The notes: generated by a model not told the origin, from the letters alone. A DNA stretch of 64,000 bases from Coleofasciculus chthonoplastes F2-STO-03 (GCA_040222015.1 JAVJWO010000085.1:1-64000), one strand, 5' to 3'; counted from the stretch's first letter, positions 58,484 to 61,990 are shown. Translations and numbers: made by a program.

Positions 58484-59249
58484 AATTCTTGAATTGAACG
58501 CTACGCAGGATAATTTGCTCTACTACTAACGCATACTACGCTTTATTCGCTTACTTCGTAAGGCTTCAGCCGCCTTGCTTTTCAATTCTTTACTAGCCGT
58601 GAGCAAATTGTCGGCTTTTTGTTATCTACTATACGAAAATCCAGTGATTTGCCGCCAGTAACCTGGCATTTAGCGCTAAAGGTTTGCTCTAAAATACTAA
58701 AATTTGTTAAGCTATCAGCTCAGTTTTTATTCCTAAGTATCTATACCGGCTCCAAAAAAGACAACGGGGATTGCATGGTGCTATTGAGTCTATCATCTCT
58801 CAATTTTACGCTTATCCTGCTGGTGGATTATCTCCGTCAAATTACGGAATAATCCTCTAAAATGTTAGCGATTGCTCACAATCTTAAATCTAAACAAAAA
58901 TCACAAACTCTAACATTGTCAAAATTGATACAGTTAAATCTTTGAACTTGATCAGGACTACAGCTAGAGGGAATCACCAGTGCTTGCGGTGGAGCATCGA
59001 ACCTGCCTGCGATCGCGCTGACTTGATGTTTGATTGTTGATACCTACACCTGACAGCAGGATGACACCTCCCTGCCTCAAAATAAATGCAGATTTCATTT
59101 CAAAAAGCTATATAAAGGCTTAATTCGACTACGGAAATAGAATTCTGCGCTCTATGGAAACAACATTGATTTCTTCTATGAAGATCCCGACGCCGAAGTT
59201 TTGGGATACCTTCACTGGAATGATGAAGGATCTCGCCTAATCATCCTTA

Positions 59250-59572
59250 GTGAACTACCCGACGCCCTCGCGCAGCCGAAGCGCGGGCTTCCTACCCAGA
59301 AACCAGCGTAGTAGTAGATTGCTTTCGTCCTCTAAGTAGGTTGGTGGAAATAAGCTCAACTATATTAAGTTATGTAAAACTCGCCTCAAACTCTTACAAA
59401 GGACGAATGACGAATGACGAAGGACGAATGACGAAGGACGAAGGACGAAGGACGAATGACAGCTCCTGGGTTATTCACCATCAACAAGTTACCTGTCAAC
59501 CATGATTCGGCGTGACTCCCTTGCCAACGCTAAGATGGGGTATCCGTTGCCAAATCAGGAGAAACAATCCAC
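59250..59572 (-). mobile_element. Decayed IS200/IS605 tnpB 3' end/right end, interrupted by a MITE/STRR insert
   Basis: Minus strand ...TTGGCAACGGA...GGGAGTCACGCC...GAAGCCCGCGCTTCGGCTGCGCGAGGGCGTCGGGTAGTTCAC, resembling typical tnpB tails. Confidence 0.55.
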
Positions 59573-59591
59573 ACTCAAGCCAGTTTAGACT

Positions 59592-59597
59592 TATAAT
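59592..59597 (+). promoter_or_regulatory. Consensus -10 box, candidate native pilM promoter
   Basis: TATAAT lies 6 nt before the insertion point of the IS605-type element. Confidence 0.45.
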
Positions 59598-59603
59598 TTT
59601 GAC

Positions 59604-59992
59604 TGGAGATTTGGGTTTAGATTTCCCGTCCTTGTCGGACGGCTTTAAAAATGTCCTAATATATCGATGAATTCATGTATACTAATAATAGCGGTAAAGC
59701 GCACATAAAAAGCGAAGTTGGTAAAGCGGATTATTATCTCTTGTATCCGGAGCCCTGGCAGCAAAGAATAAAGCCTAAATCTTGCAAACTGAGAGACGTT
59801 AAAGCGAGAATTCGATAAATCTCGATACATCAAAATACCGTGGGACACACGGAAATATAAGCTTGAGGAGTGAGTTGAAAGACTCAAGTATGCTCGATAA
59901 GACCAAAGGTAAACCAATTCACTTGTTGAAGCGGATAACCGGAGGCAAGGTCAGCCCAAGAATCCCCGCACGTATAGGGCGGGGATTGTCAA
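59604..59992 (+). mobile_element. Non-autonomous IS200/IS605-type element with a tnpB tail/omegaRNA remnant
   Basis: Preceded by TTGAC; left hairpin CCGTCC-TTGTC-GGACGG; decayed NTVGHTEI*A*G...QESP tnpB tail; right hairpin ATCCCCGC...GCGGGGAT ending TGTCAA; no tnpA or tnpB ORF. Confidence 0.72.
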
Positions 59993-60011
59993 ACCAGTCC
60001 CCACCTGAGCT

Positions 60012-61115
60012 ATGTTGAACCGTTTCCAAAATCTATTTTCTAAGGGTAAGAAAGGTATCGGGATAGAATTAGCACCAGAACGTATTAGTATCGCCCAACT
60101 GCGAAAGCAAGGTCAGGGCTACAAGCTGGTGAGCCTTCATACCCATGAAGTTCCCGAAGGTTTATTTGACGGAGGGAAAATAATCGATGCCGCCAGCTTA
60201 GCTGAACTTGTGACTGAAGTTCTTGACGAGCATAAACTCAAAGTCGAGCAAGTCGCTACGGCTGTCCCCATGCGGGAAGCGGTGATCCGAATTATTCCTA
60301 TTCCCGCCGAACTCGATGACCAAGAACTGCGAGATATGGTTCTCAACCATGAAGCCGGTCTATACTTACCCTATCCGCGTGAAGAAGTGGATTTAGATTA
60401 CCAAAAACTGGGCTTCTTCATGGACGAAGACGGGATTGAAAAAGTACAAGTCTTGCTGGTGGCAACACGCCGGGAGGTGACAGACACCTATCTGGATACT
60501 TTCCAACTGGTGGGGTTAAAAGTCGATGTCCTGGAAATCAATAGTTTTGCCCTGATTCGCACCATCCGCGAGCAACTGCGACAATTTGCGCCCCAAGAAG
60601 CGGCGGTATTAGTGGATATAGAATTTGATAGTACCGAAATTGCGATTATTGTCGATGGAGTCCCCCAGTTTTCCCGTACCGTTCCCATTGGCACATTCCA
60701 ACTCCAAAGTGCGCTGTCACGGGCGATGAATTTACCGACATCCAGAAACACGGAACTCTTGCAGGGAATGACAATACCCAACACTCCGGTGGATGGCATT
60801 CGCACGGGTGCCACGGGAATTAATCCGGGAATGGCAGCACTGCTGAGAGTTTTAGGTGAACTCGCCGATGAATTGCGTCGTTCCATCGACTTTTATTTAA
60901 ATCAGAGTGAAAATCTAGAAGTGGCTCAACTCCTCCTCGCTGGACCTGGCGGCGGAATTGGACAACTGGATGAATTTTTCACCCAACGATTAAGCTTGCC
61001 TACCACTCAGGTTGATCCGATTGCGGCACTATCCTTAGAGATGGAGCAAGATGTTCCCCCAGTACAACGACCCGGATTGGGAACGGTATTAGGATTAGGA
61101 TTGCGGGAGGTTTAA
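60012..61115 (+). CDS. pilM: Type IV pilus assembly protein PilM
   Basis: Actin-like fold (IGIEL, YLPY.REEV.LDY, VLLVAT, ELRRS.DFY, LAGPGG); first gene of pilMNOQ. Confidence 0.95.
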   Translation: MLNRFQNLFSKGKKGIGIELAPERISIAQLRKQGQGYKLVSLHTHEVPEGLFDGGKIIDAASLAELVTEVLDEHKLKVEQVATAVPMREAVIRIIPIPAELDDQELRDMVLNHEAGLYLPYPREEVDLDYQKLGFFMDEDGIEKVQVLLVATRREVTDTYLDTFQLVGLKVDVLEINSFALIRTIREQLRQFAPQEAAVLVDIEFDSTEIAIIVDGVPQFSRTVPIGTFQLQSALSRAMNLPTSRNTELLQGMTIPNTPVDGIRTGATGINPGMAALLRVLGELADELRRSIDFYLNQSENLEVAQLLLAGPGGGIGQLDEFFTQRLSLPTTQVDPIAALSLEMEQDVPPVQRPGLGTVLGLGLREV

Positions 61116-61120
61116 CTCTA

Positions 61121-61990
61121 ATGTATAGTCTCGATATTAATTTTCTTAAAGATAGACCCGATTATCGCCAACCCGATAAAGGGTCTGAGTCCCCCAAAGC
61201 CAAAAAACAGATTCATATTGGGGAAATGACGCCGCTGGTTCTGGGTGTGATTGTTGGGTTACTGCCGCTGGCGTTAGCCGCCGGCATCGGTTTTTTGTGG
61301 CTACCTCAGCAAAATGCCAAGTTAAACCAGGAAATTGCTGAAATCGACCAAGAACTAGCAAGTTTGGAAGCGGAAAAAAATAAAATTAATAACCTGGATA
61401 ATCAAATCCAAGCGGTGAGACAGGAAACCGAAGCCTTGGCAACGGTCTTTAATCAAATTAAGCCCTGGTCAGCCATTCTACAGGATATTCGCGATCGCGT
61501 CCCCACCGGAGTCCAAATTCAAGCGATTGAACAAACGGAAACCGAAACTGAAGCGGCTGAGGGGACTGAGGGTAGCACCCCCTTACCCACAATTAACGTG
61601 GAGATTTCTGGCGTAGCGCGTTCATTTGATGATGTGAACAACTTTCTGCTGACGCTACAGGAATCTCCCTTCTTTCAAGAGGAAGAAACTCATATCGTTA
61701 CCGCTCAACTGGAGGAGAACCCCGCTGAGTTAGAAGTACCGGAAAAGGAAGACGGCGAGACGGTGGCTGAGATAACCTACGAGTTGCCCAAAGTGGTAGG
61801 CTATACCGTTGAAACGAGCTTGACAAATGTCCCTGCTTCTGAACTATTGCGCGAAATTGACCGCAAAGGAGCGGTGGGATTAGTGGCTCGGATCAAAGCC
61901 TTACAGCAGATTGAGCAAAATCAGGCAACAGAGACACCTAGCCCAGCTCCAAGCCCCAGCCGAAGCCCAACTGAGACAACTACGGAGTGA
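61121..61990 (+). CDS. pilN: Type IV pilus assembly protein PilN
   Basis: MYSLDINFL motif, TM, coiled coil, PWSA.LQDI..RVP.GVQI, I.G.A.SF..VN.F. Confidence 0.92.
   Translation: MYSLDINFLKDRPDYRQPDKGSESPKAKKQIHIGEMTPLVLGVIVGLLPLALAAGIGFLWLPQQNAKLNQEIAEIDQELASLEAEKNKINNLDNQIQAVRQETEALATVFNQIKPWSAILQDIRDRVPTGVQIQAIEQTETETEAAEGTEGSTPLPTINVEISGVARSFDDVNNFLLTLQESPFFQEEETHIVTAQLEENPAELEVPEKEDGETVAEITYELPKVVGYTVETSLTNVPASELLREIDRKGAVGLVARIKALQQIEQNQATETPSPAPSPSRSPTETTTE

Follow-up and report, generated by a model that had tools for sequence, protein, structure and literature searches.

A protein-free IS200/IS605-type element at the pilM leader of Coleofasciculus chthonoplastes carries a covarying pseudoknotted RNA module 5' of a TnpB omegaRNA

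Protein-free PATEs of Haloquadratum walsbyi are described as deletion remnants by Dyall-Smith et al. (2011, PMC3119063), and in Geobacillus stearothermophilus protein-free IS200/IS605 PATEs are reported to encode omegaRNAs for TnpB in trans (Meers et al., 10.1101/2023.03.14.532601). Altae-Tran et al. (2023, PMC10691335) describe standalone omegaRNAs as guide RNAs mobilised without effector or transposase and working in trans, and call their role unknown. In IStrons, as presented in 10.1101/2023.11.20.567912, a structured RNA is fused 5' of the omegaRNA within IS605-type ends, and gene drive by TnpB in multicopy replicons is reported for tnpB-coding elements on plasmids (Mears et al., PMC11870625). 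PATEs, omegaRNA-coding PATEs and standalone omegaRNAs are already known; new here is a covarying pseudoknotted module situated between a predicted internal promoter and the omegaRNA, and in searches of the open-access literature none of the papers listed dealt with a structured leader in protein-free elements of cyanobacteria.

The element lies in the 7.7-Mb genome of the filamentous cyanobacterium C. chthonoplastes F2-STO-03 (G000), in a 64,000-nt stretch of DNA, the window, to which coordinates given without a contig or locus name refer. The original prediction placed TATAAT, TTGAC, TATACT, a right hairpin, TCAA, a 19-nt leader and the pilM ATG at positions where all are found. The orthologous pilM-leader locus was retrieved from all eight congeners (among them G001 to G005, G007 and G008) in a search of 60 relatives, and comparison yields the following features.

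58915..60017, no strand: tract of ~1.1 kb in which G002 has the G000 alleles, from informative sites, bar a repeat indel at 59421-59460
59538..59546, plus strand: J-box-like motif GGGTATCCG, last T missing (consensus GGGaAtacT), rival pilM promoter
59568..59597, plus strand: sigma70-like promoter TCCACA-18-TATAAT (TATAAT at 59592-97), 10 of 12 consensus matches, predicted start near 59604
59599..59603, plus strand: target motif and predicted TAM TTGAC, directly 5' of the insert and in all empty alleles
59604..59992, plus strand: protein-free IS200/IS605-type element, 389 bp, from alignment with empty alleles; sense ORF absent
59604..59650, plus strand: left end with subterminal hairpin CCGTCC/GGACGG (59626-59642)
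59678..59683, plus strand: the element's own -10 box TATACT, from its spacing to module X; predicted start ~59690
59690..59834, plus strand: module X, ~145 nt, conserved structured RNA with pseudoknot, from covariation
59698..59997, no strand: stretch under a single metatranscriptome contig of run X6 at depth 17, ending in adapter sequence at 59698, flanks bare
59835..59992, plus strand: TnpB omegaRNA scaffold, overlapping the right end, with hairpin and right end as in the tnpB tails of this genome
59961..59992, plus strand: right end, hairpin 59961-59987 (arms 59961-69/59979-87) and cleavage motif TCAA (59989-59992)
59993..60012, plus strand: predicted guide, the 19-nt pilM leader, which 6 of the 7 congeners with an empty site match directly behind TTGAC
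60012..61115, plus strand: pilM, intact, 367 aa (Pfam PilM_2, E 2e-42)
61121..61990, plus strand: pilN (Pfam PilN)
to 62783, plus strand: pilO-like ORF, a weak match only
62887 to past the window end, plus strand: pilQ-like frame, 963 aa, named by position

Empty alleles are observed in seven of the eight congeners, reading TTATAATTTTGAC|AC(C/A)AGTCC with TTGAC joined straight to the leader; the boundaries of the insert (59604-59992) are therefore exact and a target duplication is absent, which confirms the predicted 389-bp IS200/IS605-type insertion 3' of TTGAC as well as the expectation that relatives would be empty. The remaining congener, G002, has the same 389 bp as G000. A leader of 19 nt (59993-60011) separates the insert end from the pilM ATG (60012), and the same TGAC target is used by intact tnpB elements of the congeners. 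The sense strand of the insert has stops in all three frames and the antisense strand has one 90-aa frame without signs of being a gene; tblastn against 17 TnpBs gives a best E of 0.06. Of the decayed tnpB tail that had been proposed, ~10 codons around TVGHT (59837-51) are recovered and no more than that, coinciding with the omegaRNA 5' hairpin (best tblastn E for this stretch 0.07). The loop of an omegaRNA's 5' hairpin pairs with the 3' end of the RNA, and in this hairpin (59838-52, CCGTG-GGACA-CACGG) the loop GACA is able to pair with TGTC at 59987-90; both CCGTG-GGACA-CACGG and TGTCAA recur in the tnpB tails at contigs C22, C47 and C125. The GAAT-hairpin-TCAA right end is canonical and common to other right ends of the genome, and no end-to-end inverted repeat was found in the insert among 21 pairs.

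Judged by these traits, the element is a PATE-like, protein-free IS200/IS605 derivative. With the PATEs of H. walsbyi, as described, it shares near-terminal palindromes, lack of terminal inverted repeats, of target duplication and of a protein gene, a length too short for a transposase, and strain-specific insertion; unlike them, it has a promoter that is conserved and carries an RNA other than tnpB sequence as cargo. Like the PATEs of G. stearothermophilus it has IS605-type ends, no protein gene, a retained omegaRNA and a target motif 5' of the left end, and its retention by cutting of the empty site is likewise predicted, but the ~145-nt covarying pseudoknotted module, joined to several types of left end and scaffold, is unlike those elements as described. 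It resembles the published standalone omegaRNAs in being a guide RNA without effector or transposase whose scaffold derives from the tnpB 3' end plus right end, and departs from their description in its extra 5' module; trans activity of this RNA is predicted.

At the DNA-guide position, the insert's left end reads TTAGATTT where the family has CAAGC, TTAGATTT being an altered form of the TCAGGCTC subtype found in intact elements. Across the family, TGAC is paired with CAAG in 18 of 22 left ends and TTAC with AAAG in 25 of 28, in a search limited to six tetramers, and the insert departs from consensus at both the first base and the DNA guide. Excision is uncertain because this left-end guide is atypical, and the element may, on the same ground, be immobile. 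For the proposed count of genomic copies, BLAST over the 7.7-Mb genome returned no other full copy, only eight right-end matches of 35-53 bp. Module X marks a family of elements.

A pattern search with X recovered 63 loci in 26 named cyanobacterial genomes, among genera including Symploca, Moorena, Coleofasciculus, Calothrix, Anabaena, Nodularia, Nostoc and Scytonema, with 20 of the 63 loci in one Symploca genome. An omegaRNA follows X in 60 of the 63, two of the others being truncated by a contig end and one interrupted, and X is combined with at least three omegaRNA types and with several left ends having TGAC or TTAC targets. TnpB matches (query: the 17 TnpBs of this genome) lie near 6 of 69 element loci, none of them in place between promoter and right end. 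Run over 151 genomes of the order, a covariance model found X in eight, and in eight additional X loci that were inspected an omegaRNA-like stretch lies behind X in all and a TnpB match in none. Locus L068, from genome G063, which is marked unpublished, underlies none of the claims made here. The proposal that the element has its own promoter at TATACT gains from the family, since 59 of the 63 elements have TAnnnT at a distance of 7 or 8 nt from the start of X and the other four have GAYAAT, counts in which members of multi-copy families are not independent. Ten of the 47 family elements with both ends lie inside long ORFs, eight sense and two antisense (strand bias p = 0.11); members within otherwise open frames are L152, L165, L168, L179, L180, L191, L193 and L081 (sense) and L174 and L184 (antisense).

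The ~150 nt of non-tnpB sequence had been suspected to be a structured RNA, and covariation among homologues bears this out. The pseudoknot is formed by a hairpin (59727-30/59746-49) whose loop pairs with 59791-96. When the fold is applied to 37 diverse sequences, 90.9% of cells are paired, as against 29-47% with the partners slid; two-sided changes are observed in 12 of 22 pairs, including four of the five pairs of the pseudoknot helix, and one long-range pair alternates between AU and GC in 17 sequences. A first alignment gave similar covariation. Shuffle counts are not to be read as probabilities, because the structure was derived from the same, related sequences. Pair 32-80 is mostly unpaired, a second pseudoknot of 2 bp is almost without covariation, and many unpaired bases are invariant. 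Folded alone as a single sequence, X is uninformative (z +0.69). On the evidence of covariation, module X is a structured RNA without an Rfam family: Rfam gave no match for the window stretch at E<=1 and only a chance match (E 2.2) for the homologue at L141.

Other identities for X were considered and set aside. A likeness to the Cas12k tracrRNA was not borne out, as an HMM of X against 14 cas12k loci gave a best E of 3.2, the reverse search a best E of 0.26, and the covariance model no match in 12 cas12k loci. Descent from a decayed tnpB 5' end was rejected in view of loops that vary in length while base pairs are kept, and of the absence of matches to the X model in 16 tnpB loci. Part of the module may resemble an rRNA antitermination box. 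BLAST with X over 401 genomes of the class matched in two only, the method being too insensitive; a metagenome scan gave 13 loci, comprising ten family members and three chance matches in coding DNA; and an occurrence in viral contigs was discarded, since HMM matches at the 19 pattern matches covered the seed only and the three inspected were all chance. A plasmid search gave no match. X stands before an omegaRNA wherever this can be traced, in combination with a variety of ends and scaffolds, and for that reason most likely serves the RNA itself, in folding, protection and survival or protein binding.

Further observations were made on related elements. Two X elements whose ends are worn, L155 and L160, from records of Symploca and Caldora, occupy one site before a gene that we take, from its N-terminus, to be ahcY-like; these two are possibly fixed and domesticated. 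A second conserved module, Y, is present at L066, L067, L069, L070, L073 and L084 and precedes the same omegaRNA type as that of the 389-bp element; inspection by eye shows covariation in its stems and in a likely pseudoknot, and it matches neither Rfam nor the X model. A HEARO RNA (RF02033, 129 bits) lies at L066:1196-1423, near a module-Y element. G000 itself has at least five further kinds of protein-free IS605-type element, which differ in their 5' RNA stretch but all combine it with a likely promoter and an omegaRNA-like end (C42:527(-), C21 and C66; C110, C112, C217:14213 and C216:81785; C181:44819(-); C183:14595(-); C216:78149; C216:4731(-)), and in the C110 type ACCTTGAAAACT stands between two complementary strands.

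The pilN, pilO-like and pilQ-like frames downstream of the insertion are all open, and pilM is full length in all nine genomes of the genus, with 41 synonymous and 3 non-synonymous codon changes between G000 and G002 and, over the genus, 36-70 synonymous and 3-8 non-synonymous differences from G000; by these counts pilM is under purifying selection. On contig C85, past the window (65961-67334, plus strand), a 458-aa TnpB-like frame lies directly behind the pilQ-like gene. The sigma70-like promoter search found two sites against 1.1 expected by shuffle, and TATAAT is kept in G000 and all eight congeners, so a pilM start near 59604, as originally predicted, is plausible, though it has a rival in the J-box-like motif ~55 bp upstream, of which GGGTAT is present in G000 and seven of eight congeners. 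At 91-95 nt before pilM, GGGTACCAT occurs in 5 of 11 loci from other genera, its last T being lost in Coleofasciculus. In Nostoc punctiforme, pilM-Q is described as SigJ-dependent with the J-box GGGaAtacT, and the pilM promoter as containing GGGTATCTT (PMC6495340). Both candidate promoters lie to the left of the insert and are untouched by it; the insertion lengthens the pilM leader from 19 to 408 nt and adds a predicted promoter facing pilM. The original prediction that excision would restore a -10 box is therefore not supported, as the candidate promoters stand intact outside the insert and excision would shorten the leader from 408 to 19 nt.

The locus was examined in four sequencing runs as assembled contigs, which carry no strand, ends, start or level and drop rare variants. 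Both RNA runs among the four, X5 and X6, cover the element: in addition to the X6 contig, confined to 59698-59997, run X5 gave contigs at 59643-59850, 59841-60188 and 60196-60346, the second of which bridges the right end and pilM and agrees with the expectation that element sequence becomes the pilM 5' UTR. The contigs fit a discrete RNA of ~300 nt together with read-through into pilM, the bare flanks in X6 being the sole control for DNA carry-over. A promoter of its own for the standalone omegaRNA is predicted from the fixed spacing of the -10 box in 59 of 63 elements and hinted at by the X6 contig. In DNA run X1 the insert is found together with a pilM 99% like that of G000 on a single 9-kb contig, which argues against an assembly chimera. 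The empty joint TTGAC|leader is absent from the contigs of all four runs, in which rare variants are dropped. A near-identical insert is present in at least five lineages or samples (G000, G002 and runs X1, X5 and X6), run X3 repeating the G002 type.

The insert in G002 sits on borrowed sequence. G002 and G000 show zero differences over 59461-60029, against a divergence of 6.7% over 352 kb aligned (500 kb of G002's 8.7 Mb examined), and outside 58915-60017 the informative sites of G002 mostly follow the empty-site genomes G001 and G007. Its pilM is 98.2% and 97.7% identical to those of the empty-site G007 and G001, respectively, and 95.8% to that of G000. From this allele pattern, the ~1.1-kb tract with the insert is a recent cross-species transfer into the G002 lineage, its right edge lying 25-38 bp right of the element. 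The identical tract as proof of homing was weakened by a control: the 352 kb contain four identical runs of at least 569 bp and 11 of at least 400 bp, and at 1.9% of aligned sites the flanks are no less identical than around the insert. Since long identical tracts are not rare, the shared insert can be explained by passive recombination. For three other protein-free elements of G000 the corresponding sites in G002 lack the element (0/3), which in this small sample weakly favours homing. Homing of the insert is no more than plausible, because cross-species gene flow is common here. Further identical G000/G002 tracts of 400-738 bp, at C40:25126, C169:3772-6765, C195:122722, C126:1579 and C184, show frequent recent gene flow. 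Within the transferred tract, the remnant of a gene's 3' part at 59100-59270, longer in G003, G004 and G007, has a truncation in common with G002, and a short tandem GACGAA(T/G) repeat of a genome-wide family (59396-59460) contains the only G000/G002 indel near the insert.

An element without genes would depend on proteins from elsewhere, and the proposed search for cognate tnpA and tnpB gave candidates. Profiles matched 75 TnpB tails and 17 Y1_Tnp in G000, where several Y1 transposase frames are open. TGAC-target elements with full-length tnpB of 398-427 aa and D/E/D motifs are present in G002, G005, G007 and G008, and 6 of 10 loci are complete with all three catalytic motifs, as listed by pattern; L252, L254 and L257 code for a TGAC-type TnpB of 403 aa. 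No intact TGAC-type tnpB is assembled in G000; because 5' ends of this type sit at the ends of contigs C151 and C123 and 3' ends at those of C187 and C37, such a gene is probably present but unassembled. The full-length tnpB elements of G000 with the most similar omegaRNA, at C22 and C47, have TTAC targets. The claim that the guide would be read from the pilM leader stands, and the candidate target of a TnpB acting in trans is predicted to be TTGAC-ACCAGTCC, i.e. TTGAC plus the pilM leader. Changes in the guide seed are found in the G001 empty allele and at position 59994 in RNA run X5. A guide target is lacking in G000 (no TGAC followed by the 10-nt seed, no 16-nt match within three mismatches), which leaves repression by a dead TnpB without a target there and sets the locus apart from TldR-type RNA-guided repression, where the guide has a TAM-flanked target in the same genome.

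The reading that we favour, and consider rather probable, is that of a protein-free insertion that likely transcribes a ~300-nt RNA composed of X and a guide RNA, likely borrows TnpA and TnpB from other elements, and would keep its place or spread at this site as a selfish ratchet while the pilus operon stays transcribed. Insertion took place 3' of TTGAC without duplication, as the empty alleles show. Transcription would begin near 59690 from the internal -10 box, as its fixed spacing predicts and one RNA contig hints. By sequence and published TnpB rules, RNA running through the right end would take the pilM leader as guide, with TTGAC plus leader, the empty allele, as target. A TGAC-type TnpB from elsewhere would cut empty copies, whether left by excision or incoming from relatives, after which repair would reinstate the insert; transcription of pilM would start at its intact upstream promoter, at the element promoter with a longer leader, or at both, and one bridging contig is in keeping with this; and X would serve the RNA itself through folding, protection or protein binding. 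TnpB action is reported to restore the element at the empty site (10.1101/2023.03.14.532601), and a ratchet rather than a toggle follows from action that restores and does not remove the insert. As in the plasmid gene drive described for TnpB, the insertion site is recorded in the guide, which would favour the inheritance of filled copies; unlike the plasmid case, this element lies on the chromosome and codes for no protein, and its drive is a prediction. Weighing on the other side are the want of an assembled intact TGAC-type tnpB in G000, the dependence of expression on assembled contigs that carry no strand, the TTAC targets of the C22 and C47 elements, the guide-seed changes, the commonness of long identical G000/G002 tracts, and the atypical left-end guide of a possibly immobile element.

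Much of this would also suit an inert passenger, a near-neutral and perhaps immobilised PATE that reached G002 by ordinary homologous recombination with its guide idle; general gene flow between G000 and G002, the single copy, the off-consensus left end and the lack of an assembled cognate TnpB all speak for it, but a near-identical insert in at least five lineages or samples, an RNA contig confined to the element, the conserved pairs of scaffold and pseudoknot, and the absence of three other G000 elements from their sites in G002 (a small sample) make it unlikely. Selection for the insert itself, swept because its promoter or leader changes pilMNOQ expression, could account for near-invariance across samples and two species at a motility and competence operon, and has a parallel in the worn-end relatives before the ahcY-like gene in two genera. 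Seven congeners do without the insert, and X is not tuned to pilM, since it shows the same conservation at dozens of unrelated sites, often between or within genes; we regard such domestication as very unlikely.

A ribozyme, cleaving off the guide RNA or splicing the element from host mRNA as in IStrons, is suggested by the compact pseudoknotted fold, its many invariant unpaired bases and the intragenic members, of which eight of ten are sense. That strand bias falls short of significance, Rfam gave no ribozyme or intron match, a skipping joint is absent from the contigs of both RNA runs, and X and the omegaRNA lie unbroken within the X6 contig. Group I splicing requires a terminal G, and the element ends in A (TCAA). 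A structured RNA 5' of an omegaRNA within IS605-type ends is shared with IStrons as described; a group I match, a terminal G and a splicing joint are lacking here, and catalysis of this kind is highly improbable. The least probable reading is the one with which the analysis began, in which TnpA excision gives a short-leader ON state and reinsertion an OFF state, so that pili, motility or competence would toggle. The IS200/IS605 family is known for precise excision, as set out in 10.1101/2023.03.14.532601, the insert lies where transcription from a TATAAT promoter present throughout the genus is predicted to start, and its right-end guide and TCAA are intact. The candidate promoter elements nevertheless stand outside an insert that itself brings a predicted promoter pointing toward pilM. 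Right end and pilM are linked by an RNA contig, and purifying selection acts on pilM. The contigs of the four runs contain no empty joint, neither G002 nor G000 has an empty allele, the DNA guide of the left end is atypical, and excisions would be erased by TnpB homing. Silencing of pilM by the insert, as in a reversible IS phase-variation switch, is on this indirect evidence not supported, and a pilus switch is very improbable.

A more far-reaching reading, which we consider unlikely, takes X for a functional RNA of a new class, with catalytic or protein-binding activity, by means of which gene-less guide-RNA parasites would mature, protect or compete for a borrowed TnpB; this copy would then be an RNA-only gene drive crossing a species boundary at the leader of a DNA-uptake operon. 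As a pilus switch the finding is weak, and its weight lies in X as a covarying pseudoknotted RNA reused with several transposon ends. The locus offers a test of the role of standalone omegaRNAs: its filled and empty alleles are exact, its target can be named, a TnpB of the genus is a candidate helper, and the cross-species transfer tract is dated. If X binds a protein or is catalytic, OMEGA RNAs would have more parts than those described, and X might serve as an input to guide-RNA design.
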